From contig JAHIWS010000017.1 in NCBI GenBank assembly GCA_018815925.1, positions 15,285-79,284 on the forward strand: DNA of 64,000 nucleotides, written 5' to 3'. A program made the translations under genes and the position numbers. Shown here piece after piece: positions 1-64,000 of this stretch. Each line of letters begins with the position of its first letter. Positions within the stretch are counted from its first letter, which is position 1. The notes under the pieces are model-generated. The model had not been told where the DNA came from, did no database searches, and was given only the letters and a program-made list of their open reading frames with translations. Origin of the DNA: Nanobdellota archaeon (GTDB lineage: Archaea > Nanobdellota > Nanobdellia > Pacearchaeales > GW2011-AR1).

Positions 1-33
1 TATCTTTATATATGATTTAAATGAATTGTTTTT

Positions 34-1502: not shown

Positions 1503-1511
1503 AAACAAGGT

Positions 1512-3799: not shown

Positions 3800-3835
3800 T
3801 TAAATTTTTTAATCAAAGTCTTTTTTAAACTTTAT

Positions 3836-4819: not shown

Positions 4820-5742
4820 CCTTTATTTTTTATGCTTAAAAAACTTCCTATAATTGCTGGAATAATTCCATAAAGAATAAAAGTTAAAAGAGACATAGAA
4901 AAAACTTTAGCACTTCCAAGCCCAAACAACGAAAAGAGGGTGATAAGTGTTGCTTCTCTTGTTCCTAAACCATTTATGGTTATAGGTATTAAAGCTATTA
5001 TCGTTCCTATTGAAAGGATAGCAAGAAAATAATAAAAAGGAAGATTTATTCCTAAAGAAACCCCTATAATGTAAGTTACAAAATATATTACAATCCAATT
5101 AAACATATTAAAAACAGAAAAAAGAAGGAACTCTCTTTTTTTTGGAATTTTTTCATAAAAAGAATCAAAAGCTTTTCTAGCTCTTTCTTTTATTTTTTTT
5201 GGAACCAAATATATATAAAAAATTCTTAATATTGGTTTACTTCTGTCTTTTTTTATAAATAACAAAAAAAGTAAGATCCCTGTAAGGAAAATAGTTATTA
5301 AAAGGGATATTGGAATAATTTCTAAGTCTTTTCCAATTAAAATAGAAAAAATTATTGCTAAAAAGAAGATAGAAAAAATATCTAAAAATTTATCTAAAAC
5401 AAAATTACTAAAACCCCTCCCCCTATTTTGAGTATATTTTTTTAAATATTCCACTCTCAAAATTGTTCCTAGTTTAGAAGGAGTAATAAAAGAATAAAAA
5501 TTAGTTATAAGGTTTATCTTAAATGCATCTTTGAAAGGTATTTTTATTTCTTGTTTTCTAGCTATTACAAACCATTTTAGGGTTTCAGTGATAAGTACAA
5601 GAAATACAAAAAAAAGAGCAATAAATAGTAAAAAAAGATTAGCATTTTTTATTTCTTGAATAATTTCTGAGAGATCTAATTTAATTAAAAGATATATGAA
5701 AATTAAAATTCCTATAAGTGGAAGAAATCTTTTAATTTTCAT
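4810..5742 (-). CDS. UPF0104 / LPG-synthase-TM family membrane protein (flippase-like)
   Basis: Polytopic membrane protein with GLGTREATLITLFSLFG motif typical of PF03706; often paired with GT2 genes in archaea. Confidence 0.5.
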   Translation of the reverse strand: MKIKRFLPLIGILIFIYLLIKLDLSEIIQEIKNANLFLLFIALFFVFLVLITETLKWFVIARKQEIKIPFKDAFKINLITNFYSFITPSKLGTILRVEYLKKYTQNRGRGFSNFVLDKFLDIFSIFFLAIIFSILIGKDLEIIPISLLITIFLTGILLFLLFIKKDRSKPILRIFYIYLVPKKIKERARKAFDSFYEKIPKKREFLLFSVFNMFNWIVIYFVTYIIGVSLGINLPFYYFLAILSIGTIIALIPITINGLGTREATLITLFSLFGLGSAKVFSMSLLTFILYGIIPAIIGSFLSIKNKGWE

Positions 5743-6746
5743 GTAAATAAAACCCCTCTAAAAAAAACTAATGATAATCCTATTAATATTAATTGGAATA
5801 AAAAGATTAAATAAACAACATCTTTTTCATAAACTCTTTTTTTAATTTTACTAAGGATAAGAATAAAAAGGTGTGTTAAACTATAAATTTTTTTATATGG
5901 CATTTCTAAAAAACCTTCTTTATTTGGTTTACCATAACATTGTTTTACCAACCTACCTCTTATTGTTAGGATTGTTTCAATTATATAGGGGATAAAGATA
6001 AAGATGGCAATTTTTTCAAAATTTCCTAAAATAGCCATAATTGCTATTAATGCCCCTATACTATATGTGAGAACATCTCCGGGAAAGACTTGTGCAGGAT
6101 ATTTATTAAAAAAATAAAAAGCCAATAATGAAACAACCATACACAATCCAAGAATTGATAACCAAGTACTTCCAGTTTTATAGGAAACAAAGGATAAAAA
6201 ACCAATTATTAAGACTCCTTGTCCTGCTTCTAATCCATTAAAACCAGCAAGAAAATTATAACTAATTGTAGCACCTAAGATTCCAAGCGGAATAAGAAAT
6301 AAGGGGTATATTAAACCAAGATTTGTGTGTCCAAAAAAGGGAATTAATACTTGATGTACTCCTGCATTTATAACTATCAAAGGAATTGTACCCCCCAGAA
6401 CCAAAAAGATTCTTGTTTTTTTTCCAAGACCTATTTTCCATCCAAAAAAATCATCCATAATTCCAACATAAGAAATTATTATTATTGAAGTTGTCAAAGC
6501 AAAAATTTCAGTTAAATTTGTTAGGTCTTTAAAATAAAAAGTTTTTATAGCAATGTAAATCAACACACCAATAAGAAAACCTAAAATTACAATTATTCCT
6601 CCAGATTCTGCTATTTCTAATTTACTTAACTTATTCAAATCTTTGCCTGTTAACCTAGTCTTTTTTGCTTTTTTTATCCAGGATGGTAAAACTAACATAG
6701 TTACAAAAAAACTTGTTAATAAGGGGATAAATAAGAGTGATTGCAT
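5739..6746 (-). CDS. aglH: UDP-GlcNAc:dolichyl-phosphate GlcNAc-1-phosphate transferase-like GT4 (AglH/MraY/WecA family)
   Basis: GIMDDFFGWK and NFLAGFNGLEAGQG motifs of the MraY-like polyprenyl-phosphate hexose-1-P transferase family; polytopic. Confidence 0.65.
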   Translation of the reverse strand: MQSLLFIPLLTSFFVTMLVLPSWIKKAKKTRLTGKDLNKLSKLEIAESGGIIVILGFLIGVLIYIAIKTFYFKDLTNLTEIFALTTSIIIISYVGIMDDFFGWKIGLGKKTRIFLVLGGTIPLIVINAGVHQVLIPFFGHTNLGLIYPLFLIPLGILGATISYNFLAGFNGLEAGQGVLIIGFLSFVSYKTGSTWLSILGLCMVVSLLAFYFFNKYPAQVFPGDVLTYSIGALIAIMAILGNFEKIAIFIFIPYIIETILTIRGRLVKQCYGKPNKEGFLEMPYKKIYSLTHLFILILSKIKKRVYEKDVVYLIFLFQLILIGLSLVFFRGVLFT

Positions 6747-6784
6747 TTTTTGAAATAGTTTTAATATTTTTTAAATATCACCTA

Positions 6785-9709
6785 TTATAATTTCCATTTA
6801 ATGTATTTGGAAGCATCTTTATCTAGATATTCTTCACGGATTTGTTCTTCTCCAGTATATTCTATTTCCCATATTTTAATTGGGCCTTGGATTCCTTGAT
6901 AATAGATAAATTCAGGAAGATTCATCCCTTGATTACGTAATTGATCAATAATAAGGTTTTGTTCAGAATGAACTAATTCAAAGTTTTGGAATTTTTTTAA
7001 AGGATCATCTAGGATATATATTTGAGCCACCATGCCCCTCATTAATCTGGGGGAAATGTACATTGCAGCCCCAAGAACATTAGATGTTAAACTTTGTCCT
7101 TGTTGTTTCATGGCTGGGAAAACATAAATTGCTGCTTCAATACCAGATTTAAAATCAACAAATTCTCCAGATATAGAAAGATATCTTAAGTTTACTTGGT
7201 ATTGTTGTCCTTGATAAACCATTATTACATAAGGTTGGGAAAATGTGGTTTTATTTTCTTTTTTTTCTACAGAAAGAATTATTGCTCCTGCTCCTGCTTG
7301 TTGTGCTGGAAGTAATATCTCTTTGTCATCCTTTGTTATTATTAAATCTTCATCCAATGCACTTCCTCCAGAATAAACATAAATAGTTTGATTTTTGGTT
7401 TCATGTGTTTGTTTTTCATCTTGTAAAAAGACCCCAATCCAAGAATATCTATCATAATTTTCATCACTTCCAATGCTTGAATAAGCCCCATATTTACCAA
7501 TATCTGAAGAATCAATTAGAAGATGTGTTGCATTATGGTTATATAAAAATTCCAAAGCATTTTTTTGATTATCTCCTGTTAACACATGCCTGCCCATCAA
7601 GTAGTTCCAATAAGTGATTGCATTTCCCCCATCTAAGACAGTAGCTCTATTTCCTATGCTTTGGACCCAATATCCATAATCCCACCAATGTGAAAATACA
7701 GCATCTTGTGGTGTTTCATCTCTAACCCATTGCATTGCTTTTTGCCATTGTTGGTTATAATAAGATGGTATAAAATTATATGCTTGTACTTTTATTGTTT
7801 TATAAAAATTCCAAAAAACAAACATACTCAATATAAGTATTATAATAATAAATACTCCTATAAATAGCTTTTGAGTTTCCTCATTTGTTTTTTTAAATTT
7901 GTCAATTGATTCAACAATAAGATAAGAAACAAAAATAGGAGCAATTGGAGCTAAAACCATTGTAAGCCTTACAGCACCTCTTGCACTAAACAAACATAAA
8001 ATAAATAAAACAAACAAAAATAAATATTCATAAGAAATTTGTTGAAAATTATTATTCCCTTCCTTGTAATATTTATCATAATAATAAATTAAAACACCTA
8101 TTAGAAGTATAGCAGAAAGATAATAAAAGCTTTTACTTATAAAATTTTCACCATTTAAAATACTTGATGAAGAATATCTCGAAAAAATCATACCAAATAA
8201 AAATAAAATGTAAAATCCAGTTAAAACCCAATTATCTTTATTTTTTATCTTATTCAACATTTTTCTAAATAAAACTATAGAACCGATTATAAATGACCAA
8301 AATAAGATAGGGATATTTTTAATAAAAGGACCAAAACTTGATCCCCATTCTGTAAAAAAAGGTTGCCTATTTTCAGCAACAGTTGTGTTCCATCTCCCGA
8401 TTACAGGCCTAAACATTGTTTGATGAATTGCTTTTATTTTACTAATAATAAAGTCAGGACCAAAAAAAATCAAGGCAAAAAAGAAAATCAAAACTATTGC
8501 AATAATTAAAGAGATAATTGTCTTTGGAAATTTTAGATTTTTTAGAAATTTTATGTTCCCTAATTTTGTATTGTTGAGGATAAAATGAACAGTCATAATA
8601 AAAAAAACTAAAAAAACCAAGCCTGTATTTATTGATGTAAGGAGACTAATCAATGAAAATTTATTTGTAAGGAGAAGCAATAATGAAAAAGAAGTAAAAA
8701 ACCAAAGAGTGTATATTAAAAATTCTTTTTTATTTATTTTGTTTAAAATAAAAGCAATCAAGTTTGTAGCAGAAATAACAATAAAAATATACATTACCCC
8801 TCCCCAAATTAGCCCCATACAAGCAGTAGAAATTCCTGCTAAAATTGTTAGGATAGAAGCTTTTTTTATTTTTTCAGTTTTCCAAGCTTTTAAGAAAAGA
8901 TAAAATGTAAGAAACATAAAAAAGAAAGCAGCTGATTCTTTTTCAGGAATACCTGCAACTGTTCTTGATAAGAAAACAGGAATAACAATCATGAAAAATG
9001 TGGAAATCAAGGCTATAGTATTAGCTTTAAGTATGCTTTTTTTGGAATTTTTTATAAAAATTTCTCTAACAAACAAAAAGAAAGAGATTATTGTTAATGC
9101 AAACATTATTACAGGAAAGATAACCCCTGCAAGTTCAATATTAGCCTCCATGAAAATATTTAATATGTGGTAAGTCCAATCTATCAGGCGTGGGAGAAGC
9201 ATAGATTCTTTACTCATATCAAATCCCAAGGGAACATTTCTCATCATATCTATTTTTGGTAATGAACCTTCTTCAACAATAATTTTAGCATATCTTTCAA
9301 ATAACCAAGGATCTAAGTCAGGTCCAAGAGTCCAAGTATTTGTTGTTATATCCCATAAACCTGGTGTGCCTCCATGATCTTGCATCGGAAGGCTTCTAAT
9401 ATAAATCCCTAAAATTAATGCAATGATTAATACACCCATAACCCAGATTTGTTTATTTTTTAAAAAATTAATTATTTTCTTTTTTCTTTCCTCTATTTCG
9501 TCTTTTGGTTCAGTTATTTTAGTTGTTATAGGCAATTCTGAAACAGCTTCTGAAATTTTTTCTTCTTTTTCTGCTATTTCTAGATTTACTACTTCTTGTT
9601 TTGGAACACTTTTTTGTATTTCTTTACTTATATCTTCAGAGTACTCTTTTTTTTCCTTAGTGCCTGAAGTTTTATCTTTAGGTGCTTGTTCTTTATTTTC
9701 TCCAATCAT
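6785..9709 (-). CDS. aglB: Oligosaccharyltransferase AglB (STT3 family)
   Basis: 974 aa; polytopic N-terminal half with large C-terminal soluble domain carrying the hallmark WWDYGYW motif. Confidence 0.85.
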   Translation of the reverse strand: MIGENKEQAPKDKTSGTKEKKEYSEDISKEIQKSVPKQEVVNLEIAEKEEKISEAVSELPITTKITEPKDEIEERKKKIINFLKNKQIWVMGVLIIALILGIYIRSLPMQDHGGTPGLWDITTNTWTLGPDLDPWLFERYAKIIVEEGSLPKIDMMRNVPLGFDMSKESMLLPRLIDWTYHILNIFMEANIELAGVIFPVIMFALTIISFFLFVREIFIKNSKKSILKANTIALISTFFMIVIPVFLSRTVAGIPEKESAAFFFMFLTFYLFLKAWKTEKIKKASILTILAGISTACMGLIWGGVMYIFIVISATNLIAFILNKINKKEFLIYTLWFFTSFSLLLLLTNKFSLISLLTSINTGLVFLVFFIMTVHFILNNTKLGNIKFLKNLKFPKTIISLIIAIVLIFFFALIFFGPDFIISKIKAIHQTMFRPVIGRWNTTVAENRQPFFTEWGSSFGPFIKNIPILFWSFIIGSIVLFRKMLNKIKNKDNWVLTGFYILFLFGMIFSRYSSSSILNGENFISKSFYYLSAILLIGVLIYYYDKYYKEGNNNFQQISYEYLFLFVLFILCLFSARGAVRLTMVLAPIAPIFVSYLIVESIDKFKKTNEETQKLFIGVFIIIILILSMFVFWNFYKTIKVQAYNFIPSYYNQQWQKAMQWVRDETPQDAVFSHWWDYGYWVQSIGNRATVLDGGNAITYWNYLMGRHVLTGDNQKNALEFLYNHNATHLLIDSSDIGKYGAYSSIGSDENYDRYSWIGVFLQDEKQTHETKNQTIYVYSGGSALDEDLIITKDDKEILLPAQQAGAGAIILSVEKKENKTTFSQPYVIMVYQGQQYQVNLRYLSISGEFVDFKSGIEAAIYVFPAMKQQGQSLTSNVLGAAMYISPRLMRGMVAQIYILDDPLKKFQNFELVHSEQNLIIDQLRNQGMNLPEFIYYQGIQGPIKIWEIEYTGEEQIREEYLDKDASKYIKWKL

Positions 9710-36825: not shown

Positions 36826-36973
36826 TTTATTCTTTTATCCTCCCAAATCATGCGTCACAAGCCTAGAATTTATCTTGTAACGATATGGTACAAACGGATA
36901 AATTTTTGAGATAAATTTAGTTTATAAATCTTCCTATCAAAATCTTTAAGTAATCTTCTTCTTATTTACTATC

Positions 36974-37900
36974 ATGAAAAAAGATGGTTTTTTGCAAATA
37001 TCTTTTAGTTGGCTTTTTGCATTTATTGTAGGAGGATTTATTTTATTTCTCGCAATATATGCAGCAGTAAAAATGATAAATACAAGTGAAACAGAAATAG
37101 ACGCTAGAATAGGAAAAGAAATAGGTATTTTACTTAATCCTCTTGAAATAAGTTTTGAATCTGAAAAAACAACTTCCTTAACAACACCCGTAACGACCAG
37201 GATAATTAATAAATGCTATCCAAGTGGGATATTCGGAGAGCAGGTAATTCAAATTCAACAAAAAAGTTTTAATAAGTGGACAAATACAAATATTGATATA
37301 GGTTTTTCAAATAAATATATTTTTTCAGAAAGACAAACAGAAGGAAAAAAATTTTATGTTTTTCTAAAACCTTTTGAATTTCCATTTAAGGTTGCTGATT
37401 TAATCTTTTTAAGTTCTGCAGATAAAAATTATTGTTTTGTTGATGCTCCAGAACAAATTAAAAACAAATTAACAGATCTTAGTCAAAAAAATATTTTTAA
37501 TGAGGATGATTTAAAAAACTGTCCTGAATCTAGTATTAAAGTGTGTTTTGGAACAGGAAATTGCAATATAAAAATAAATCAGAATGCTAATTATGTAGAA
37601 AAACAAAATAAAAGACTTTACTTTGAAACAGATGCTTTAATGTATGCTGCTATTTTTGCAGAGCCTGAAATTTATGAATGCCAGGTTAAAAGACTAATGC
37701 AAAGGACAAGCGAATTAGCAATACTCTATAAAGATAAGGCAACATTTATAGCTAGAACAGGTTGTAATTCTAATTTGGATTTAGTTTCTTTAAGTACTTT
37801 AGCCAGTGGGTTGGAGCAATCTTCTCAGCTTACCTCACTCTTCCAAATTGTAAATAAAATAGGAGAAAATAATAATGATGCAGATTGTAAATTATGGTAA
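36974..37900 (+). CDS. Type IV pilin-like protein (class III signal peptide), candidate 1
   Basis: N-terminus MKKDG|FLQISFSWLFAFIVGGFILFLAI: charged residues, Gly, then Phe-initiated hydrophobic helix (prepilin-peptidase-like site); rest extracellular and Cys-containing. Confidence 0.4.
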   Translation: MKKDGFLQISFSWLFAFIVGGFILFLAIYAAVKMINTSETEIDARIGKEIGILLNPLEISFESEKTTSLTTPVTTRIINKCYPSGIFGEQVIQIQQKSFNKWTNTNIDIGFSNKYIFSERQTEGKKFYVFLKPFEFPFKVADLIFLSSADKNYCFVDAPEQIKNKLTDLSQKNIFNEDDLKNCPESSIKVCFGTGNCNIKINQNANYVEKQNKRLYFETDALMYAAIFAEPEIYECQVKRLMQRTSELAILYKDKATFIARTGCNSNLDLVSLSTLASGLEQSSQLTSLFQIVNKIGENNNDADCKLW

Positions 37901-38423
37901 AACAAAAAAAGCACAACTCAAAATCCAGCAAATGGCATTTATGTTGATAGCAGTTACAATTTTTTTTGCATTAGTTGGTATGTTTGTTTTGGTATTTAAA
38001 TTTTCTGAATTAAAAGAATCAGCAAGTTTACTAGAAGAAAAAGATGCAATATTATTAGCTGAAAAACTTGCAAATTCACCTGAATTTTCATGTGGAGATA
38101 GTTTTGGAACACATAAGCTTAATTGTATTGATGCTGATAAAATAATGATTTTAAAATCAAGAATTTCAAGATATTCAAATTTTTGGGGAAGTTCTAATAT
38201 TGAAATAAGAAAAATTTACCCTGGAATTACTGGAAAAGTTCTTTGCAATTCTGGAAATTATCCTAATTGCAATATAATTAGACTTATTTCAGATGAAATA
38301 ACAGGAGTAGATGCTTCAACTTTTGTATCTTTATGTAGAAAAGAGCTTGATACAGGCTCTGATTTAGGGTTTTATAATAAATGTGAACTAGCTAAGCTTA
38401 TGGTGAGTTATGAACAAAAATAA
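37875..38423 (+). CDS. Type IV pilin-like protein (class III signal peptide), candidate 2
   Basis: N-terminus ...KIQQMA|FMLIAVTIFFALVGMFVLVF; overlaps upstream gene by 26 nt. Confidence 0.4.
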   Translation: MMQIVNYGKTKKAQLKIQQMAFMLIAVTIFFALVGMFVLVFKFSELKESASLLEEKDAILLAEKLANSPEFSCGDSFGTHKLNCIDADKIMILKSRISRYSNFWGSSNIEIRKIYPGITGKVLCNSGNYPNCNIIRLISDEITGVDASTFVSLCRKELDTGSDLGFYNKCELAKLMVSYEQK

Positions 38424-38480
38424 AGGAAACTAAGGTTTTCTTATTAACCCTTCTTTTAGGAGAGGGTTAAGTCTAATAAG

Positions 38481-39002
38481 ATGGTAAAAAATAAAACAAA
38501 AAAAACTCAGGAACAAAAATCAAAGATTTTATATAAGCCTAGAAAGGCTCAAGAAGAAATGGTCGGATTTACACTAATAATAGTGATAGTAGCTGTGATT
38601 TTACTTATTTTACTAGTATTTTCTTTAAAAAAACCTCAGCAACAAGCAGTAGATAGTCATGAAGTAGAAGCCTTTATTCAAGGATTATTACAATATACAA
38701 CAGATTGCAAAGATAATTTAGAATATTTTTCAGTTGAAAAGCTTATATATGCATGCAATAGAAATGAAAATTGTTTAGATGAAAGAAATACTTGTGATGT
38801 TTTACACACTACATTAGAAGATATTTCAGATCAAAGTTGGTTAATTTCAGACTCAAGTTCCATAAAAGGATATGGTCTAAATATAACAGTAAATGAACAA
38901 GAACTGTTTTCTTTTATAAAAGGCAATTTAACTAAAATATATAAGGGCACCATACAAGTAAAACCTTCAAAAATTAACATATTTTTTAGTGTTTATTATT
39001 AA
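38481..39002 (+). CDS. Type IV pilin-like protein (class III signal peptide), candidate 3
   Basis: N-terminus ...KAQEEMVG|FTLIIVIVAVILLIL closely resembles the G|FTLIE prepilin motif. Confidence 0.45.
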   Translation: MVKNKTKKTQEQKSKILYKPRKAQEEMVGFTLIIVIVAVILLILLVFSLKKPQQQAVDSHEVEAFIQGLLQYTTDCKDNLEYFSVEKLIYACNRNENCLDERNTCDVLHTTLEDISDQSWLISDSSSIKGYGLNITVNEQELFSFIKGNLTKIYKGTIQVKPSKINIFFSVYY

Positions 39003-39005
39003 AAC

Positions 39006-39359
39006 TTACACCTTAACATGTATTGTAATAGTATCTACAACAATTTTAGGAACATGCCTAATTCTTTTTTGGGTTTTTTCTTCAACCAATTCAATAAAGC
39101 CAAATCTTTTGAGTAGTTTTATATCATCACTCACAGATTTAAAGCCTCTTCCTAGTTTTTTAGCTAAATCATATATTGAATTTGGGTGTTGAATCTTTAT
39201 TACATGTAAAATACGTGCTTTTTCATTGCTTAATAGCTGTCTTAAAGCTAGAATACCATCAAAATCAAAATCTTTTTTAGAAATTCCTGGTTTTTTTAAA
39301 AGAGAAAACACTCCTTTTGATTCTTTTATTGTTACTTCTCTTGTTTTTGTTGAACCCAT
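39006..39359 (-). CDS. Winged-helix transcriptional regulator (ArsR/MarR-like)
   Basis: 117 aa; HVIKIQHPNSIYDLAKKLGRGFKSVSDDIKLLKRFGFIE HTH-wing pattern. Confidence 0.5.
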   Translation of the reverse strand: MGSTKTREVTIKESKGVFSLLKKPGISKKDFDFDGILALRQLLSNEKARILHVIKIQHPNSIYDLAKKLGRGFKSVSDDIKLLKRFGFIELVEEKTQKRIRHVPKIVVDTITIHVKV

Positions 39360-39872
39360 TTTTTCTTAAATCCCTTGTTTTTATATATCTATTATTTTTA
39401 AATAGATATTTTTAACATATGTTTTATAGTTATATGTTATTTATTAGTATATATTAAGATTAAAAACCATACATTAATAAATGTTTTGTTTTATGGGGCT
39501 TTTAAAATATGTGTTGATGACTTAGTGATAACATAAGCTTTATAAATAAAACCATTAAAAAAGAGTTTTTTTATTATATATAGGAAAAATATATATGTAA
39601 GCTTTATAAAGAAAAATAGTTTTTTGATATTACACTCTTTGAGTGTTCTAATAGGGTATTAGATAAAAAAGGTATTAACCAAAATGTACAATATATTAAG
39701 ATTCATAGAACAATTATTCATGCTTATCCAACCTATAGTTTACCCTATGCTATAGAGGATGTAGTTGTCATAGACAACAGAGGCTAATATAATGAAAAAA
39801 GAGAAATCAAAGATAAATCTTGAATTAACTATATTAGCTTATAGAGTTGAAAGGAGGTTAAAATAAAGAAAT

Positions 39873-42374
39873 ATGAAATTTAATTTTAAAAAAATTTCTG
39901 CAATAGGAAGTAGTTTATTATTAGCTGGTATGAGCATTGCTGCTCCAATTGCTGCTGCAAACTATCCAGCACCTTTTGTTGTTGGAGGTTCAGAAGATAT
40001 CTCAGCACTTGTGTATGGAGCTAATGCTGCTACACTTGATGGTGTTTTAGCAGGTAAAATAAACGAAGATTTGAATAGTTATGTAACCACTACAACTTCT
40101 GGTACTTCAAGTACAGTTACTGGGGGAGATAGTGTTCTAATTGGGAAGTCCAGTGACCATTTAAATCTTGGAAATACCTGGTCTGTTTTTACTGGATCAG
40201 TTGGAGATGATGATTTAAGTTTATTACTTGCTGATGGAACATATAGAGCAAATGATAATGATGAGTTTGACTATGAACAAAAAATCAATCTTGGTGCTCC
40301 CACATTCTCTTTTTTTAGAGATTCAGATTACGAAGATTTGATTGGTGCTAGTGGTAAAACGCCAACACTTGGATTTAGAATCACTTCAAACACGTATATT
40401 ATGAACTATACCCTAGATTTCACAACAGATGTTGAAGATGATAGTGCAGGAGCAACTGACTTGGCAGATATAGAAGGAAGTGACTTAACTATCTTAGGTA
40501 AAACATATTATGTATCTGATGCTAAGAATGGTACTTCAAGTAGTGTTGCAGGTAAATTTACACTTTTAGACTCAGCACAGATTGGAACAGTTAGTGAAGG
40601 AGAGAGTGTAACTATCTCTGGACATGATGTTAGTATTTCCTACATGGACAATAATGAGGTTAAATTCATTGTAGATGGGAAAGATGTTCCTTCAAGTGGG
40701 AAACTTACTGCTGGAAGTAGCTATAAGTTAGATGATGGTTCATACATTGGAGTAAGAGATATAAGTAAACTTGAAATCCAAGGAGAAATTGGGACTGCTT
40801 CATTTAGTATTGGGTCAGGAAAATTAGAAGTTACTTCAGGATCTGAAGTAAAACTCAACGATGATACTATTAGTGGTGTAAGAGGATGGATCCACAAAGG
40901 AACTGCATCTGGAGGAGTTGAAAAAATAGACAAGATTGTTCTTGAATGGAGAGTTGATGGTGAAGTTTTTATAACTCCTGAATCAGAATTGATATTACCT
41001 GGTTTTGGATCTATTAAGTTTTCAATGAATTCTATCATGAGAAATACAGAAGAAAAAATCACTATTGATAGAGATGGAGATACAAGCATTGAATTAACTG
41101 CTCCAATAAAAGATGGAGATGTTAGTATAAATCTTCTTTATTCAAATGCTTCAGGAGATTGGATTGGAATTGGAAAAGACGCTACAAATAGGTTAGCAAC
41201 AGATGGAGATAGGACTCTTACTTTCATCCAAAAAGTTGGAAGTGAAGATTACCATGAAGAATTTGTTGTTTCATACAATATAACTGGCGAAGCACAATCT
41301 TATTTAATGAAAGCAAAAATTACAGAAGATAAAACTGCAGGAAGAAATGAAACAGAACTTTTGAAATATGCTAATGGAGCATGGGTAACTGTTTGTAGTG
41401 AAAAAACAGCATTAGATACATGTGATGTTGGGGATGTTACTTTAACAATTAATTCCTTAATGTCCAATTCTTCAGATAAAAATGTGTCCTTAACAGGTAG
41501 TGCAAACACTAACTTTTATACACTTTTTACTGCAGGAGGACTTAAGATAATTCTTCCTTATACAAAAGCAACTATTTTAGCATCAACAGCTGATTATGAA
41601 AAAGGTGCTTTAAATGTTACTGCTGGAAATGTAACTGGAAATAATGAAATAGAGTGGTATTTGCACATGGAAGGTGAAGACAAGGATGATAATATTGGTT
41701 CTGGAACTGGATTTAGTTTTACATTAACTTCTACTACTGCAAACAAAGTACATGTTTCTGCTGTAAACACTACTGGAGGTGGAGCTGGTTCAGGAACAGG
41801 AGGATTAACTGGTCTTGAATTAGAAGAGAGCAATAACTATTACAATTATGTGATAGATGATGTGGCTCCTAAGATCATCCATTATACAGGTGGTGATGAA
41901 GATTATGCAGAAGTATATTATCCTTCAGGAGATTCTGAAAGTTATGCAGAAGTTTTCTTAGCTGAAGTTGGTGCTCAGATTACTGCTGGAAGTGTTGGAA
42001 GTTCAGGAGGAACCTCTTTCGGATATCTTGTGGTTTCAGATAATGAAGTGGCTTCTGTGGCTAATAAAAATATAATTGTGGTTGGTGGAACTTGTATTAA
42101 TTCTGCTGCTGCTAAAGTATTAGGTGTTGCTACAGGAACTTGTGGAGCTGAATTTACAACTGCAACTGGTGTTGGAGCAGGACAGTTCTTAATACAAAGT
42201 GTTGAAGGAGCTTATACTGCTGGAAAGATTGCATTGGTTGTTGCTGGATATGAAATGGCAGAGACACAAATGGCTACAACATACCTAACAACTCAGAAGC
42301 CGGATGTAAGTGCTGGTAACAAATATACAGGTACATCTTCTACAAGTGCTACTCTTGTTACAGAAACAGCTTAG
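39873..42374 (+). CDS. Secreted S-layer-like glycoprotein candidate
   Basis: Signal peptide MKFNFKKISAIGSSLLLAGMSIAAPIAAA; 833 aa, Thr/Ser/Gly/Asp-rich, many N-x-S/T sequons; preceded by a 500-nt AT-rich leader and followed by an oligo-T terminator. Confidence 0.55.
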   Translation: MKFNFKKISAIGSSLLLAGMSIAAPIAAANYPAPFVVGGSEDISALVYGANAATLDGVLAGKINEDLNSYVTTTTSGTSSTVTGGDSVLIGKSSDHLNLGNTWSVFTGSVGDDDLSLLLADGTYRANDNDEFDYEQKINLGAPTFSFFRDSDYEDLIGASGKTPTLGFRITSNTYIMNYTLDFTTDVEDDSAGATDLADIEGSDLTILGKTYYVSDAKNGTSSSVAGKFTLLDSAQIGTVSEGESVTISGHDVSISYMDNNEVKFIVDGKDVPSSGKLTAGSSYKLDDGSYIGVRDISKLEIQGEIGTASFSIGSGKLEVTSGSEVKLNDDTISGVRGWIHKGTASGGVEKIDKIVLEWRVDGEVFITPESELILPGFGSIKFSMNSIMRNTEEKITIDRDGDTSIELTAPIKDGDVSINLLYSNASGDWIGIGKDATNRLATDGDRTLTFIQKVGSEDYHEEFVVSYNITGEAQSYLMKAKITEDKTAGRNETELLKYANGAWVTVCSEKTALDTCDVGDVTLTINSLMSNSSDKNVSLTGSANTNFYTLFTAGGLKIILPYTKATILASTADYEKGALNVTAGNVTGNNEIEWYLHMEGEDKDDNIGSGTGFSFTLTSTTANKVHVSAVNTTGGGAGSGTGGLTGLELEESNNYYNYVIDDVAPKIIHYTGGDEDYAEVYYPSGDSESYAEVFLAEVGAQITAGSVGSSGGTSFGYLVVSDNEVASVANKNIIVVGGTCINSAAAKVLGVATGTCGAEFTTATGVGAGQFLIQSVEGAYTAGKIALVVAGYEMAETQMATTYLTTQKPDVSAGNKYTGTSSTSATLVTETA

Positions 42375-42491: not shown

Positions 42492-43073
42492 ATGAGAAAG
42501 ATAAACTTAAAAAATAAGAAAGAAAAGGACAAACGAACAAAACAATTTCTTGTAGGAGCCATTCTTATAGCTATAATGTTTTTTAGTGTTTTAGGATATT
42601 CTTTTAGTGGAAAAGACCAAAAAAATACAAATAAGGTGGTTTATAATGGATTTGAATTCACAAAACAAGATCCTTACTGGATTTCAGAAAAAGAAAGTTT
42701 AAAATTTGTTTTTACATATAATCCTGAAGAAACTTCTAGGATTGATTCATATTTAAAAGATTTAAATAATTATTATGGAAAACCTCTTTATATTTATTCT
42801 GATGCTGATGAATCAGAATTAGAAATTTATAGAAATCTTGATCCCAGAAATAATCCTATTGTTCAAAGAATTCAACCAGCATGTTTAGAAGAGCAGAAAT
42901 GTGAAGGAGATTTACCTATTAAAACTTGTGAAGATAATTTTATCATAATTAAAGAAGATAATATGACCACTATTGTGCAGGATAATAATTGTGTATTTAT
43001 TCAGGCTTCTAAAGAGGATTTAACAAAGATTACAGATGAATTTTTATTTAAACTATTTAAAATAGTGCAATAA
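42492..43073 (+). CDS. Secreted/anchored hypothetical protein
   Basis: N-terminal signal anchor FLVGAILIAIMFFSVLGYSF; 193 aa, Cys-containing. Confidence 0.45.
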   Translation: MRKINLKNKKEKDKRTKQFLVGAILIAIMFFSVLGYSFSGKDQKNTNKVVYNGFEFTKQDPYWISEKESLKFVFTYNPEETSRIDSYLKDLNNYYGKPLYIYSDADESELEIYRNLDPRNNPIVQRIQPACLEEQKCEGDLPIKTCEDNFIIIKEDNMTTIVQDNNCVFIQASKEDLTKITDEFLFKLFKIVQ

Positions 43074-43104
43074 ATCTTATAAACTAAAAAAATAGAAAAG
43101 AATA

Positions 43105-43767
43105 ATGGAATGGAAAAGAGATAAAGAAGAGGAGAACAAAAAAGAGCTAGAAGAAAAAATAAAAAATAACTTAGATATTGAACAAAATAAAACTCTAAAA
43201 AAAATTTTTGTTTTTCTTGGTGTTTTTATACTAATTATAACTTTATGGGTAATTTTTATTAATTCTACTAAACATTTTGAGTACAGAGGTATAACAGGAA
43301 ATGTTATTAAAGAAGGAGAACTAATTTTTTATCAAACTACTGTTCCAATGAAATATCAAGGAGAGTGGGTGGATTACAATATTTTTTTAAGAAATAGTCC
43401 TAAAAGTTTGGAGAGGATTCCTTTTGATGGAGAAATTAATTTATTACATAATATGGTTTTAGAAAGTGAGGAAGAGTTTTCATGTGATGGAAAAGGAATT
43501 ATTTCTATTGTAAATTTAAAAAATTTATATAATGTAGTAGGGACAAAAGTAATAAAAGATGAAAATGCAACCTGTGACCCAGAAGGAAGATATATGTTTT
43601 TAAGAATTCAAAATGGAGATGTGACAAGTATAGAACAAGTAGGTCCTGCCTGTTACAACCTTAATGTTAACAATTGTGAAATTTTAGAAGTAACAGAAAA
43701 ATTTATGGTTGAAACTCTTGTTAAAGCAAATGAGATAGTTAATGAAAATAAGGAAAATTTTTCTTAA
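43105..43767 (+). CDS. Secreted/anchored hypothetical protein
   Basis: N-terminal charged region then anchor IFVFLGVFILIITLWVIFI; 220 aa. Confidence 0.45.
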   Translation: MEWKRDKEEENKKELEEKIKNNLDIEQNKTLKKIFVFLGVFILIITLWVIFINSTKHFEYRGITGNVIKEGELIFYQTTVPMKYQGEWVDYNIFLRNSPKSLERIPFDGEINLLHNMVLESEEEFSCDGKGIISIVNLKNLYNVVGTKVIKDENATCDPEGRYMFLRIQNGDVTSIEQVGPACYNLNVNNCEILEVTEKFMVETLVKANEIVNENKENFS

Positions 43768-44387: not shown

Positions 44388-44921
44388 TTATTTTTTTAAT
44401 AGGGATTTAGAATATAAAAACTTTACATCTGAATAAAAAGGAATTTCTTTTATCTTAAACATTTTTACTTCTGTGAACCAGATTCCAATAACAAAAACAA
44501 TGCTTATCAAATACCAAAATAATTTATGAGTTATATCAAACAAAGAAGAACTTGTCACATTCAAAACATCCAATAAAAAAATCCTTAAAATATTTAAGAT
44601 TAAAAAAACTACAAAAGCAAACAAAATCATTTTTATTCTTTTAGAAAATTTTATTTGTGGAACAGAAAGATTAAATATAAGCAAAAGATAATAAGCAGAT
44701 CCTGCAACACAAGCAGGAATTAAGGTTATAGAGGATTCTCCTATTATTAAAATATTTTGGATAATTAAAATATCAAAGAATATATCCAATAAGAAGTAAA
44801 CAGGATAAATTGTAAGTGGAGTAAATATAAAATACAAAACATTTATTCCAACCCCCAGGGCAATCAGAATTAGGTATCTTGTTAAAATGCTAAATATACC
44901 TCTTTTCCATACCATTTCCAT
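44388..44921 (-). CDS. Archaeosortase/exosortase-like polytopic membrane protein (candidate)
   Basis: 177 aa, about 5 TMs, conserved-looking ITLIPACVAGSAYY Cys motif and later Arg residues; adjacent to a surface protein with C-terminal TM and basic tail. Confidence 0.35.
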   Translation of the reverse strand: MEMVWKRGIFSILTRYLILIALGVGINVLYFIFTPLTIYPVYFLLDIFFDILIIQNILIIGESSITLIPACVAGSAYYLLLIFNLSVPQIKFSKRIKMILFAFVVFLILNILRIFLLDVLNVTSSSLFDITHKLFWYLISIVFVIGIWFTEVKMFKIKEIPFYSDVKFLYSKSLLKK

Positions 44922-45285: not shown

Positions 45286-47196
45286 TTATCTCTTAGCAAC
45301 TCTTACTGCTACGATTATGATTATAATAACAAGAATTATATTTAATAATCCAATTCCCCATAGATATGCATTGCCTCCACCAATAATTCCTCCAGTAATT
45401 CCTGCAAAACCTGTCTTTTCAATTGTAACAGAAGCAGGTTGACTTAAAATCAATTTATTGTTTGAAGTAACATCAATATAAAAAATTTGTTCCCCTGAAA
45501 TACCTTTGTTTACTATAAAAGTAAATAATGCATCTCCTGAATCTCCAGGAGCTAAAACAAGTGTTTTAAGGTTAACATCTGTTAATTCAGCCCAATCAGA
45601 ATACCCTGAAACATCTAATCCATATGCTGCTAAAACATCACTTGGGTTGGTTATTGTCGCTCTAACTACTAATTCTTTTCCTGCTTGACCTCCAGATTCT
45701 AATTGTGCAGTAACAAGAACATTCCCTACATCTGGAGTACTAACACTTTCTCCTTCTATTATGATTGGAAACCTAAATAATGCACTATCTTCTTCTTCAT
45801 CAGTTTCATAAAGATTATCATCATCATAAACTCTAAATTCAATATAATAAGTTCCCTTTTTTGCATCTCCTGGTATTTTTATAGTTGCTTCTAATTTTTC
45901 ACTATCAAATTCTTTTACCTCTCCAATAGTGATTTTTTTGTTTATTCCTAAACTACTCTCAGAAATGAATACCATAACATCATCTTGATCATTGTCTCCA
46001 ACATTCCAAACATCTGCAGTTAAATGTAATTCACTTCCTGGGGAAATTGTTGATTCTTGGATATTAATATCATCTAAAATAACAAAATTATCATCAGTTA
46101 TTACTTCTACTTCTTGAGAATCCCAATCACAAGTGTTTTCATTATCATATTCATCAGCATCATTATCATTTATTTTTCCTGTTGCTTTAACATAAAAAAT
46201 TGCATTTTCTCCTTTAAAATCATCTATATTTTTATTTAATTTAAATGTTATAGTAATTGTTTTATCATCATTGTAATCAAGATTAAAATTACTTTCATCT
46301 CCTTTCATTATTCTTTTACCATCTGTTGTATATAATTCCCATTCAATTTTTATTTTATCTATATCCCAGCTTCCATCAATATCTACATCTGTGTCAATTT
46401 CTATTTCATCAAAAAGATACCAGTATGAGTCATCATCTCCAAAACCTTCTTTAACATTTATTTGATCTATTGTTATGTCTAATTGCCCTGGATTTGGGTT
46501 ATCACAAAAAGAACCTATTGTGTTAACTCTTTCTGAGGCAGTAGTTGTTCCAGAAGTTGCAGTAACTGTTACAAAATTTGAGCCAAAATTTAAATTACTT
46601 AAGTCACTTGTTATAGTAATTATAACATTTTGGGATGCTCCAGCATTTAAATTAAAATTATTTGTATTAAAAGAAATATCAAAATCACTTCCAGATTTAA
46701 CTAAAGAAATTCCTGTTAAAACAGTGTTTCCCTTGTTTGTTATAGTCATAGTTCCTGAATTGCTTCCTTGTGATATTGTTAAAGGAGTAATTGAAAGAGA
46801 AGGAGAATCATTAATAGTAATTGTTGAAAAAGTTAAAGAATCAGTGTCTGTGGTATTAGTATCCTTTACAATAATTTCAGCATCATTAATGCTCCCTGAT
46901 GCATGTTCATTGATTTTTAGTGTTGCTGTTAAAGATAAATTATCTCCTGCATTTATAGAAGTTATTTTTGGTAATGATGTCCAAGTAGCTTTTGCAGGAT
47001 TAATAGTGTCTGACCAATCAAGATTTGTATAATCAGCATCTGATTCTAAATTAAAACTAATTGTAATTTCAGTATTATGCTCTGCTGTAGAAGGTACAGT
47101 AACTTCAGTTAAAGTTAAAGTAGCACTAGCAATACCTATAAATAAGAAAAGTACAAATATACTTAGACTATTCAAAACAATTGATTTTGTTATCAT
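45286..47196 (-). CDS. Cell-surface protein with N-terminal signal peptide and C-terminal TM anchor (sortase-type sorting signal candidate)
   Basis: Signal peptide; 636 aa, Thr/Ser/Asn/Asp-rich repeats with many sequons; C-terminus GGGNAYLWGIGLLNIILVIIIIIVAVRVAKR (Gly-rich linker, TM, basic tail). Confidence 0.55.
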   Translation of the reverse strand: MITKSIVLNSLSIFVLFLFIGIASATLTLTEVTVPSTAEHNTEITISFNLESDADYTNLDWSDTINPAKATWTSLPKITSINAGDNLSLTATLKINEHASGSINDAEIIVKDTNTTDTDSLTFSTITINDSPSLSITPLTISQGSNSGTMTITNKGNTVLTGISLVKSGSDFDISFNTNNFNLNAGASQNVIITITSDLSNLNFGSNFVTVTATSGTTTASERVNTIGSFCDNPNPGQLDITIDQINVKEGFGDDDSYWYLFDEIEIDTDVDIDGSWDIDKIKIEWELYTTDGKRIMKGDESNFNLDYNDDKTITITFKLNKNIDDFKGENAIFYVKATGKINDNDADEYDNENTCDWDSQEVEVITDDNFVILDDINIQESTISPGSELHLTADVWNVGDNDQDDVMVFISESSLGINKKITIGEVKEFDSEKLEATIKIPGDAKKGTYYIEFRVYDDDNLYETDEEEDSALFRFPIIIEGESVSTPDVGNVLVTAQLESGGQAGKELVVRATITNPSDVLAAYGLDVSGYSDWAELTDVNLKTLVLAPGDSGDALFTFIVNKGISGEQIFYIDVTSNNKLILSQPASVTIEKTGFAGITGGIIGGGNAYLWGIGLLNIILVIIIIIVAVRVAKR

Positions 47197-51204: not shown

Positions 51205-51278
51205 TGGGGCTGCCAAGATTTGAACTTGGGTCGCCAGGTCCCAAACCTGGAATACTAACCAGGCTATACTACAGCCCC
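51205..51278 (-). tRNA. tRNA-Pro (anticodon UGG)
   Basis: Hand-folded minus strand: acceptor GGGGCTG/CAGCCCC, D-loop AGCCTGGTTAG, anticodon stem CCAGG/CCTGG with loop UUUGGGA, T-arm CCAAG-TTCAAAT-CTTGG. Confidence 0.75.
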
Positions 51279-62229: not shown

Positions 62230-62586
62230 TTACAACATAATCCTCATTCCGTTTTTAAATATTCTTTTATTTCTTGCGGAAATTATATTAGTAGTTATTG
62301 GGAATTGGTTTTTTATTGAAGGTATTTTTTTGGAGTATTTTCTTTCAATTTCCTGTTTAGATATCTTTTCAATACTATAACTAGATTTTACAATAGGAGT
62401 TCCATCAGTTAAAATATGTTTTATTGAAGATTCATCAGGAGCTTCTCCCCATACTCTTTCTAACCCTCTATAAATACTATCAAAAATTTTATTATTTTGG
62501 TTATTATCTGTAAAAACTTTTATTACTAATCCCCCTGTCTTGCATGATCCATTATCAAATTTGATTTCATAATATTTAGGATTCAT
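62230..62586 (-). CDS. Hypothetical protein
   Basis: 118-aa ORF; 2-nt gap to downstream gene. Confidence 0.35.
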   Translation of the reverse strand: MNPKYYEIKFDNGSCKTGGLVIKVFTDNNQNNKIFDSIYRGLERVWGEAPDESSIKHILTDGTPIVKSSYSIEKISKQEIERKYSKKIPSIKNQFPITTNIISARNKRIFKNGMRIML

Positions 62587-62592
62587 TTTAAA

Positions 62593-62901
62593 TTATTCTG
62601 TTCTATTTTGAATTAAATCAAGATTTTGTTTAATTGTATTAGAAGTTATTAAATGATCTGGCTTACAATAATCTAACATAGCTTTAACATAAAAAGAATC
62701 CTTAGCTAATTTTTCAGCTTTTTTTTCATTAATTTCTGTTTTAGAATAATGGCTTGAAACTCTAAAATTTCCTTCTTTATCTAGAAAAAAACCTTTTTTT
62801 CCTTCTCCTGCAATAACTTCTAATTCTCCATCTTCAAATTTAACAACAATTCCGTCTCCATCGGGATTTTTTCTTGGCCCCACTCTATAATATTTAATCA
62901 T
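62593..62901 (-). CDS. Small conserved hypothetical protein, paralog A
   Basis: 102 aa; paralogous to 62972..63220 (shared MxxKYxxxxPRxKPxxxGDxVVxxDGxLxxxxGxG N-domain); own copy of the conserved promoter motif. Confidence 0.45.
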   Translation of the reverse strand: MIKYYRVGPRKNPDGDGIVVKFEDGELEVIAGEGKKGFFLDKEGNFRVSSHYSKTEINEKKAEKLAKDSFYVKAMLDYCKPDHLITSNTIKQNLDLIQNRTE

Positions 62902-62926
62902 AGAAAAAATATACTCAAGAACTTTT

Positions 62927-62943
62927 TAAGCATTATTGTGGTA
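62927..62943 (-). promoter_or_regulatory. Conserved BRE/TATA promoter motif (copy 2, upstream of paralog A)
   Basis: TAAGCATTATTGTGGTA 26 nt upstream of start codon; coding-strand TTAAAAA TATA-like element centred near -25. Confidence 0.5.
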
Positions 62944-62971
62944 TTAGTTAGTTATTGCAATTAAATTACTT

Positions 62972-63220
62972 TCACCATAAAGGCCTACAGTTCCATTTAT
63001 CGCGAGCTTGTTTGTGTCTGAGTGCTTCTTTTTCTGTGATTCTCTCTAAATAATATTTTTTTGAACAACTAACTTGATCATATCTATCTGCTTTTAATTC
63101 AGGATCCTCAGGATAACCATCTCCTGTAAAAGTTTTTAATTGTCCGTCTTTTAATATGACAACATCTCCATTAATTTCTGGTTTATTTCTTGGTTTAAGA
63201 GAAAAATATTTTACTTCCAT
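62972..63220 (-). CDS. Small conserved hypothetical protein, paralog B
   Basis: 82 aa; paralog of 62593..62901; own copy of the conserved promoter motif. Confidence 0.45.
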   Translation of the reverse strand: MEVKYFSLKPRNKPEINGDVVILKDGQLKTFTGDGYPEDPELKADRYDQVSCSKKYYLERITEKEALRHKQARDKWNCRPLW

Positions 63221-63263: not shown

Positions 63264-63755
63264 TTACCTAGTTATTGTAACTAAACTATCACCAAAATCT
63301 TTTTTTAGGGTTAATTTGATTTTTCCATCTGGATTTGAAACACAGAACTTGTTGCCCTGAGTGATTGTCTTACTAAAATCTATATGGTTTAATGCATAAC
63401 CTGGTATGTGTTTTTCAGAAAGAAAAACTAGATTTTCATAATCATTATCTCTAAAACAAACAGATTCTACTTTTTTAGGTAAAAAATATGAAATTTCTTC
63501 TGAAGCTTGGGTTGCTTGCCATATTCGATTTAGGTCTTCTTGTAATTCTTTTTTAAACTTTGCTATTTCAGCAGTGTCTCTTAATTCAAGAAATTTTTTT
63601 ATTGCAAAAAAAGCAAACACAATAAAAACAATTATCAAAATGATTGAAAAAATCATCCCAAAAGACATTTTCATCTGACCTCTTTTCATGAATACAATAG
63701 TAAAATAGCAGTTATAAAGGTTTTTTATAGAAACATTTAAATATAAGTTATACAT
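63264..63755 (-). CDS. Hypothetical single-pass membrane protein
   Basis: 163 aa with TM MIFSIILIIVFIVFAFFAI. Confidence 0.4.
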   Translation of the reverse strand: MYNLYLNVSIKNLYNCYFTIVFMKRGQMKMSFGMIFSIILIIVFIVFAFFAIKKFLELRDTAEIAKFKKELQEDLNRIWQATQASEEISYFLPKKVESVCFRDNDYENLVFLSEKHIPGYALNHIDFSKTITQGNKFCVSNPDGKIKLTLKKDFGDSLVTITR

Positions 63756-63764
63756 GTATAATTT

Positions 63765-64000
63765 ATGGAAAGAATAACAACTAAAGTAAAAAAATGGGGT
63801 AATTCTTTTGGAATTATATTGCCAAGAAAGATATTTAATAAAGAAGTTAGAGAAGGATTAGAAGTTAATGTAATTATTCAACCAAAAAATAGAATGACTG
63901 TTGGAGATCTTTTAAATTTCAGTAAAAAAAACAAACTTCCAAAATTGAAAAAGTCCACCCAACAGATTATGGACGAAATAGATAAAGAGTTGTGGCCGGA
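63765..64000 (+). CDS. AbrB/MazE/SpoVT-family antitoxin-like protein (partial, runs off window end)
   Basis: N-terminus MERITTKVKKWGNSFGIILPRKI is the classic swapped-hairpin AbrB/MazE/VapB signature; no stop before window end. Confidence 0.5.
   Translation, partial: MERITTKVKKWGNSFGIILPRKIFNKEVREGLEVNVIIQPKNRMTVGDLLNFSKKNKLPKLKKSTQQIMDEIDKELWP

Follow-up and report, generated by a model that had tools for sequence, protein, structure and literature searches.

In bacteria, minor pilins are encoded as sets, such as FimU-PilVWX with PilY1 and the GspH-I-J-K proteins of type II secretion, and the organisation of these sets resembles that of the archaeal genes described here: an operon of fixed order specifies four mutually non-homologous pilin-like proteins beside a very large surface protein, with subunits that are conserved and, as opposed to a variable major pilin, expected in small amounts. 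The DNA concerned is a stretch of 64,000 nucleotides (the window; contig JAHIWS010000017.1 of a Nanobdellota archaeon), and the four genes, called p0 to p3 below, have N-termini resembling the class III signals of archaeal pilins. Class III processing requires glycine, alanine or serine at position -1, and in archaea a charged residue at -2 is critical (PMC4371748). EppA, the second prepilin peptidase of Methanococcus, requires in addition a glutamine at +1 of its substrates, whose sites read RAQI, KGQV, KGQL and KGQI (PMC4371748). The Epd pilins of Methanococcus maripaludis (EpdA-E, with EppA) share with p2, p3 and p0 the site [KR][GA]/Q and its obligatory +1 glutamine (a slash marks the cut, actual or predicted, throughout), and with the whole group the clustering of several different pilin-like genes; an Epd-like type IV filament (TFF) 'system 1' with many pilins has been reported in DPANN archaea (2026 preprint), which is a further point of likeness. 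ArlF and ArlG (FlaF and FlaG) are both monotopic, with an N-terminal helix like that of a pilin or archaellin and, in the pseudo-periplasm, a β-rich head; FlaF binds the S-layer protein (PMC4425475). The p0-p3 genes, for their part, are locked to an S-layer gene. Binding proteins with class III signals likewise combine a pilin-type signal with a size that is not that of a pilin, as do p1 (308 amino acids, aa) and the family of a gene of the same cluster, g5 (670-1200 aa). By analogy, the closest overall counterparts of p0-p3 are the Epd pilins in signal type and multiplicity of pilins, and the bacterial minor-pilin operons in organisation.

The four genes lie in the window as follows.

36974-37900, + strand: p1, pilin-like (open reading frame, ORF, of 308 aa)
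37875-38423, + strand: p2, pilin-like (ORF of 182 aa; 181 aa in the NCBI gene model)
38481-39002, + strand: p3, pilin-like (ORF of 173 aa)
63264-63689, - strand: p0, a fourth small pilin-like gene (found by N-terminal scan; 141 aa from an internal ATG)

The first-pass annotation of the window had described a three-gene operon, with co-directional genes of 308, 182 and 173 aa and a convergent winged helix-turn-helix (wHTH) regulator. The ORF list confirms the gene sizes, the directions and the convergent neighbour, and the N-termini quoted at that stage are correct, each ORF having an N-terminal hydrophobic helix. What has to be given up is the operon of three: the three genes are one piece of a conserved cluster that numbers about nine, from which a fourth pilin-like gene, p0, has been displaced in this genome.

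The N-termini are best judged against their families, which are large. Homologues number about 990 for p1 (the top 120 at 53-64 % identity), 1384 for p2 (those listed at 58-70 %) and 126 for p3 (35-57 %), and the p0 family forms 726 clusters at 50 % identity. Sites were counted over the listed homologues, 101 for p1, 114 for p2, 116 for p3 and 118 for p0, or some 450 in total. With so many full-length homologues, the features of the three ORFs go beyond chance. In the p1, p2 and p3 families the N-terminal motif is the most conserved part of the protein, with a consensus of KK[GA]/[YF]LQISFAWLFAIIVG for p1, [KR]K[AG]/QLKIQQMAFMLIAVTLFF for p2 and [KR][KS][GA]/QEEMVGFALIIIIVAV for p3. In this genome the predicted cut follows the leader MKKDG in p1 (G/FLQISFSWLF) and falls at KKA/QLKIQQMAFMLIAV in p2 (KKA/QLKIQQ), at RKA/QEEMVGFTLIIVIVAV in p3 (RKA/QEEMVGF) and at MKRG/QMKMSFGMIFSIILIIVF in p0. 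The residue at -1 is glycine or alanine in 101 of 101 p1 sequences, 111 of 114 for p2 (serine in the other 3), 109 of 116 for p3 (serine in 7) and 116 of 118 for p0, where the exceptions are again all serine. Lysine or arginine occupies -2 in 92 of the 101 p1 sequences (91 %), and in 82 %, 66 % and 89 % of those of p2, p3 and p0, respectively. The +1 glutamine is present in every p2 (114 of 114) and p3 (116 of 116) homologue and in 106 of 118 for p0, and occurs also in the families of two further cluster genes, g1 and g3; in the p1 family +1 is tyrosine or phenylalanine and not the glutamine of EppA substrates. Residues Q24, E25, E26, V28, G29 and F30 are invariant in the p3 family, as are S5 and F6 in the p0 family, where G7 is kept in 116 of 118 members. 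The leaders, 4-10 residues long in these counts, have median lengths of 5-10 residues and median net charges of +3 to +4.

By these counts the four families have G, A or S at -1, ahead of the hydrophobic domain and not behind it, a -2 position that is mostly charged, and a leader that is short and basic. The aspartate at -2 makes the p1 of this genome an outlier among its homologues, for which the site DAVS of Haloferax PilA1 offers a precedent (PMC4371748). The motif [KR][KR][GA]/Q fits the published archaeal rules closely, down to the restriction of -1 substitutions to serine. When all ORFs of the window were searched with a regular expression in which [KR][GA] precedes a hydrophobic stretch, a +1 glutamine was found only in p2, p3 and p0, and the other matches were polytopic transporters or Sec signal peptides.

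The first-pass annotation had seen class III signal architecture in p1-p3, and the conserved signal-like N-terminus of all three supports it in this, but two of its three cut sites were misplaced. Its site in p1, G/F, agrees with the p1 family. Its site in p2, MA/F, has threonine, leucine or valine at -1 in 11 of 117 homologues and methionine or threonine at -2. In p3 the glycine of its site VG/F is invariant (G/F in 120 of 120), but valine stands at -2 and isoleucine, methionine or valine at +5, so that the sequence, which had been called nearly the bacterial G/FTLIE motif, lacks the glutamate at +5 that marks bacterial pilins. The cuts in p2 and p3 are placed here at [KR][KR][GA]/Q, 6-8 residues upstream, because only G, A or S is found at -1 of that site and its +1 glutamine is invariant.

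The mature domains show no similarity to characterised pilins or archaellins. The head of p1 has 8 invariant cysteines (8 in 96 of 101 homologues), that of p2 has 6, also invariant (109 of 114), that of p3 has 4 conserved ones (112 of 120), and p0 has 2; these even and conserved counts indicate that the heads of p0-p3 are extracytoplasmic and disulfide-bonded. The first-pass annotation had called the mature domains cysteine-containing and unlike characterised archaellins, and this stands, with Pfam, NCBIfam and Protein Data Bank (PDB) searches all negative: profile searches with p1-p3 against PDB sequences returned nothing, or neuropilin at E>0.4, and scans of p0-p3 and 45 family members against Pfam and NCBIfam gave noise-level matches only (PspB, EssA, MLANA). 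For p3 the NCBIfam model for 'prepilin peptidase-dependent protein' (PRK10506) scored a non-significant 14 bits (E 0.033). A single p2 homologue is named 'PilX N-terminal domain-containing' by UniRef, and all other entries are 'hypothetical protein'. Literature searches on Pacearchaeota pili, HVO_A0114 and pacearchaeosortase turned up no paper describing either the families or the cluster. The possibility that p1-p3 are paralogues was rejected, hhalign having aligned only their N-terminal 12-32 residues with probabilities of 0.8-7.5 %; on this comparison the families appear to have only the N-terminal segment in common, as is the case among pilins.

AlphaFold2 (AF2) models were obtained for two of the heads. 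That of p1 (predicted local distance difference test, pLDDT, 81.5; predicted template modelling score, pTM, 0.78) has a helix of 43 residues (11-53), of which approximately residues 11-32 form the hydrophobic domain, followed by a β-rich domain (65-216) and a helical domain (220-302). For p2 (pLDDT 79, pTM 0.61) the model has helices at 8-43 and 46-66, amounting to a kinked N-terminal helix of about 59 residues, and then an α/β head with four strands. In both models the long N-terminal helix and β-containing head might be read as the layout of a pilin, in which an extended helix of about 50 residues is packed against a β-sheet head, but Foldseek matched neither model to a solved pilin. The extreme C-terminus of p1, C-[KR]-L-W (window positions 37886-37897), is almost invariant, with C305 kept throughout and L307 and W308 in at least 90 % of homologues; this is unusual for the end of a protein and may be a docking motif. 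N-x-S/T sequons occur at a median of two in p3 homologues and a median of zero in the p0, p1 and p2 families.

Gene order provides the second line of evidence. One genome per species was scanned; relatives of p1 were found in at least 184 species, and the best 80 loci were annotated by BLAST. (Loci compared with the window or flanking it carry L-numbers: L001, L003, L004, L006, L008, L009, L010, L020, L023 and L028.) The order is near-universal: PCNA > (g1, g2) g3 > g4 > g5 > p0 > p1 > p2 > p3 >, then the convergent < wHTH, then S-layer gene > p6 > p7 > (< VTT) < sortase < PACE-CTERM protein, where > and < give the direction of each gene. In 74 of the 80 loci p0 stands immediately before p1, as it does in L001, L003 and L008; of the remaining six, three end at a contig edge and three (L020, L023, L028) have unrelated genes upstream of p1, as the window does. 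Here p0 is displaced by about 24 kb from p1-p3, and g2-g5 lie just past the window end, adjoining p0 (L004 723-9386). Misassembly was considered as the cause of the split and rejected, both halves recurring in independent assemblies.

The upstream half of the cluster is itself rich in pilin-type signals. Proteins of the g1 and g3 families, of approximately 260-290 aa, carry the canonical site [KR]G/QVTIFIIIA or KKG/QVSLF, and among the families of the cluster that of g3 (KG/QVTIF or QVSLF) comes nearest to the QxSxE type; those of the g5 family (670-1200 aa) have a basic leader, a small residue and then [AI][LI]SQIIILIVGIIAISYA. Thus 6 or 7 of the nine ancestral cluster genes carry pilin-type N-termini. 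Two others, g2 and g4, specify large Sec-secreted proteins with 45-78 cysteines. These giant cysteine-rich proteins measure 989 and 547 aa in this genome and reach 1312 aa with 78 cysteines in L008 (133-9479), and they share a conserved start, SYCCEKT..AWCQN. Further pilin-type proteins of the upstream half have 276 aa and 734 aa, the latter with KKSG/MALSQIIILIVG, and the upstream-half proteins have no Pfam hits on record (L004 723-9386; L008 133-9479). Between g5 and p0 of this genome stand a PIN-domain toxin gene and an 81-aa AbrB/MazE-like antitoxin-type gene (window approximately 63765-64000 and beyond; L004 9387-9991), and in L020 an insertion of four small genes, resembling a toxin-antitoxin or nucleotidyltransferase cassette, separates p1 from p2; the breakpoints of an otherwise rigid cluster seem to be marked by small mobile cassettes.

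The pilin-like genes are embedded in a conserved cell-envelope gene neighbourhood, the remainder of which, together with a candidate promoter, is laid out in the window as follows.

36922-36930, + strand: TATA-box-like element TTTATAAAT, read from the sequence, 44 nt upstream of the p1 start
39006-39359, - strand: convergent wHTH gene of the HVO_A0114 family (117-aa ORF; Pfam PF25212)
39873-42374, + strand: S-layer-type protein, Sec-secreted (833 aa; orthology to the L001 protein)
42492-43767, + strand: p6 and p7, bitopic membrane proteins (193 aa and 220 aa; synteny)
44388-44921, - strand: pacearchaeosortase (NCBIfam NF033505, E 8e-62; 177 aa, polytopic)
45286-47196, - strand: PACE-CTERM 'putative S-layer protein' (NCBIfam NF033506, E 7e-138; 636 aa)

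The wHTH protein matches PF25212 at E 3.9e-16 (59 bits, against a Pfam cutoff of 27.6), its orthologues in related loci match the same model, and its position and orientation after p3 are kept in every related locus reaching that far except L020; the convergent regulator of the first-pass annotation is in this way placed in a family and in fixed synteny with p3. In all loci extending that far the S-layer gene comes next after the wHTH gene. The S-layer protein of this genome is 48 % identical to its L001 orthologue by BLASTP (52 % over globally aligned columns), and the L001 protein carries the Pfam domain S_layer_C (PF05124). The S-layer gene is always followed by p6 and p7, whose products have basic N-termini, no [GA]/Q site and no match in Pfam and NCBIfam scans. 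The sortase and PACE-CTERM genes form the conserved far end of the neighbourhood, and the PACE-CTERM protein is the presumed substrate of the pacearchaeosortase. The lineage appears to have two S-layer-type proteins, one processed by the sortase and the other (39873-42374) lacking an anchor at its C-terminus. In the 513-nt spacer between the wHTH and S-layer genes the BRE/TATA-like (B recognition element and TATA box) sequence AAGCTTTATAAA occurs twice, at 39535-39546 and 39599-39610, 64 nt apart; the start codon of the S-layer gene follows 260-340 nt downstream of them, which suggests that this gene is served by tandem strong promoters and a long leader. The element TTTATAAAT upstream of p1 is a possible promoter that would have arisen after the cluster was split, though such TATA-like strings are common because the G+C content of the genome is 27 %.

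We favour the view, at a probability of about 0.5, that p0-p3 carry signals of the Epd/EppA type, are substrates of a prepilin peptidase and co-assemble into a sub-structure of the type IV filament kind, most likely as minor-pilin-type subunits. Cleavage, filament-type assembly and the minor-pilin role are inferred here from ORFs, a conserved signal motif, synteny and a lack of known homologues, all observed directly, and from a long helix and head that are predicted. According to this model, Sec would insert each precursor with its short basic leader staying in the cytoplasm, and an archaeal prepilin peptidase of the EppA/PibD type would cut after the G or A of [KR][KR][GA]/Q (G/F in p1), removing a leader of 4-25 residues. 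The mature protein would be retained in the membrane by its hydrophobic helix of 21-25 residues, with the disulfide-bonded head outside. Packing of the N-terminal helices could then join four non-homologous subunits into one defined sub-assembly, a minor-pilin-type complex or a short pseudopilus that would need to pass the S-layer. The other class III-type proteins of the cluster, g3 and g5, would probably belong to the same complex, which may carry the giant cysteine-rich g2 and g4 proteins through or onto the S-layer, and the ATPase, platform and peptidase would be encoded elsewhere. Four unrelated and well-conserved subunits in fixed order, beside a very large pilin-type protein and two giant cysteine-rich proteins, make a minor-pilin complex likelier than a major pilus fibre. 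The minor-pilin or pseudopilin idea of the first-pass annotation thus survives as far as the signal motif and the fixed gene order are concerned, but finds no motor nearby and no pilin match in Pfam or the PDB. Proteins so strongly conserved, and encoded in fixed linkage with the S-layer gene, are likelier to have a core function in the envelope than to act as variable adhesins, and a part in host attachment is speculation.

A number of observations weigh against this model. Between the predicted cut and the hydrophobic core of p0-p3 lie 4-8 polar residues, and +5 is not glutamate but serine in p0 and p1, glutamine in p2 and valine in p3; both features set the proteins apart from the Epd pilins, as do their large, cysteine-rich and conserved heads. 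Pfam models of pilins and class III signals, the Epd/DUF361 model included, matched none of the 45 family members even at E<=1. The FlaFind pattern might fail to accept p0-p3 on account of the polar residues at +2 to +5. Compared with bacterial minor pilins, the proteins come from another domain of life, lack G/F(T/S)LxE with its Glu5 (only the superficial VGFTLI of p3 recalls it), and have neither a Pfam pilin family, nor a match to a solved minor-pilin structure, nor machinery found linked to them. The structure prediction that had been proposed as a check on the first-pass annotation cuts both ways, with a long helix and β-containing head predicted for p1 and p2 but no solved pilin among their Foldseek matches in the PDB, none of which was significant (best E 0.12 and 0.75). 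The conservation of the heads, at least in p1 and p2, is also unusual for exposed pilins. Between this genome and three others, identity is 56-68 % for p2, 52-58 % for p1, 50-52 % for p0 and 42-45 % for p3, against 34-52 % for the S-layer protein and 61-76 % for the wHTH protein; that two of the four heads, those of p1 and p2, are better conserved than the S-layer protein argues against an exposed subunit under diversifying selection.

The assembly machinery is the other difficulty. Whereas genes for an ATPase, two platform proteins and a peptidase belong to the epd cluster itself, this cluster holds none of them. A Pfam scan of the window outside the ribosomal operon, covering about 46 ORFs, found no prepilin peptidase, T2SSE-type ATPase or T2SSF/TadC platform. 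ATPase, platform and A24/FlaK-type peptidase were equally absent from the 10 kb past either window end and from the precomputed Pfam hits of L001, L003, L008, L009 and L010. The Walker A motif GxTGSGKTT did not occur in the 80 loci, up to 10 kb on each side of the cluster, and a crude motif search through 1.39 Mb of related loci turned up no polytopic ORF with a GxGDxK-like sequence. These searches covered cluster neighbourhoods rather than whole genomes. In archaea, pilin genes often lie apart from those of the machinery, as in the case of Haloferax pilA1-6 (PMC4371748), and for that reason a negative result in the neighbourhood does not refute the pilin model. On DPANN archaea the literature disagrees: a preprint that preceded the report of TFF system 1 states that their genomes lack type IV pilus components, which counts against the model.

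Several of these points are also what would be expected if p0-p3 were bitopic pseudo-periplasmic proteins kept in the membrane, with the leader removed or not, whose fixed complex tethers or patterns the S-layer and forms no extended filament. We regard this main rival as a real possibility, though less probable than assembly into a filament-type structure. The S-layer gene, p6, p7, the pacearchaeosortase and its PACE-CTERM substrate stand beside p0-p3 in essentially every genome, the S-layer protein (39873-42374) has no C-terminal anchor of its own, and about 85 genomes showed no assembly ATPase within 10 kb of the cluster; heads more conserved than the S-layer protein, as two of the four are, would be expected of shielded parts constrained by their interactions. 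There are precedents in FlaF, the pilin-like monotopic protein that binds the S-layer protein (PMC4425475), and in the Sulfolobus bindosome, whose binding proteins have class III signals (PMC4371748). On the other hand, sequence profiles and Foldseek detected no similarity of p0-p3 to FlaF, FlaG or substrate-binding proteins in sequence or fold, there are no archaellum genes nearby, and, unlike ArlF and ArlG, p0-p3 have a clear peptidase-type site, in which the strict -1 G, A or S and the +1 glutamine still imply processing. Seven pilin-like genes are many for a simple tether, and synteny with the S-layer gene would also suit a filament crossing the S-layer, an idea taken from the 2026 preprint.

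It is also conceivable, though we consider it doubtful, that Pacearchaeales truly lack a filament ATPase and platform, and that the six or seven class III-type proteins form a motor-independent scaffold, rooted in the membrane, which builds or holds the S-layer and presents the giant cysteine-rich proteins. Such a scaffold would amount to a pilin module repurposed as the core of the DPANN cell envelope or of an attachment organelle.

Uncleaved signal anchors of type II are an unlikely explanation. Here [KR][KR][GA]Q would be a juxtamembrane positive-inside or interaction motif in a lineage without prepilin peptidase, in agreement with the failure to find that enzyme in the sequences searched (window, flanks and the GxGDxK scan of 1.39 Mb), with the preprint claim that DPANN genomes lack pilus components and with the unmatched pilin models. 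Positive-inside charge leaves unexplained, however, why -1 should be G, A or S in some 450 sequences of four unrelated families, or why +1 should be an invariant glutamine, and the neighbouring p6 and p7 are basic at the N-terminus yet have no such motif; moreover, the peptidase search spanned only about 10 kb per genome. Secretion through Sec as soluble proteins, with the hydrophobic stretch removed by signal peptidase I, can be set aside as very improbable: a basic n-region and hydrophobic stretch are present, but in the AF2 models the stretches of 21-25 residues continue into the head as a single helix, no conserved small-x-small site is seen after them, and they are the most conserved part of the protein, whereas a signal peptide that is cut off and lost would not be expected to be so.

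The Pacearchaeota and related archaea are abundant but uncultured and probably depend on hosts, and their cell surface is essentially uncharacterised. The present analysis defines four (probably six or seven) new, unannotated families with pilin-type signals and gives their likely processing site; the cluster, with its S-layer gene, lineage-specific sortase and sortase substrate, is among the most conserved gene neighbourhoods of the lineage. These proteins are concrete targets for proteomics, for labelling in cryo-electron tomography and for structural work on envelope building and host contact, and they sharpen a question that can be tested, namely whether these genomes encode the peptidase and the motor on which proteins of this kind normally depend.

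The rest of the window is in keeping with its archaeal origin. Its G+C content is 26-35 %, its gene content is archaeal, with the L1/L10/L12, S10-spc and L11/NusG gene sets as well as SecY, AglB/STT3 and glycosyltransferases, FtsZ and SepF. Identical copies of its proteins are on deposit as 'Nanoarchaeota archaeon' MAG proteins, and the closest relatives of these carry the label Pacearchaeota. Rfam and tRNA scans of the window found nothing except tRNA-Pro at 51205-51278. The 57-nt spacer between p2 and p3 contains, ahead of the p3 start, an inverted repeat AACCCT ... AGGGTT (38446-38468) with an 11-nt loop that includes AGGAG. Directly downstream of p0, at 62230-63220 on the - strand, are three small tandem paralogous ORFs of 82, 102 and 118 aa, which have no transmembrane segment and no family hit on record and share a similar start, (K)YY..P(R)(N)K..G..V. 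A block of glycosylation and surface-polysaccharide genes occupies window positions 1-9709 and L006 1-10000; it holds AglB/STT3 (974 aa), GT2 and GT4 transferases, a polysaccharide deacetylase, two B12-radical-SAM enzymes, PMT_2, methyltransferases and an IS200-type Y1 transposase, and would fit a heavily modified envelope.

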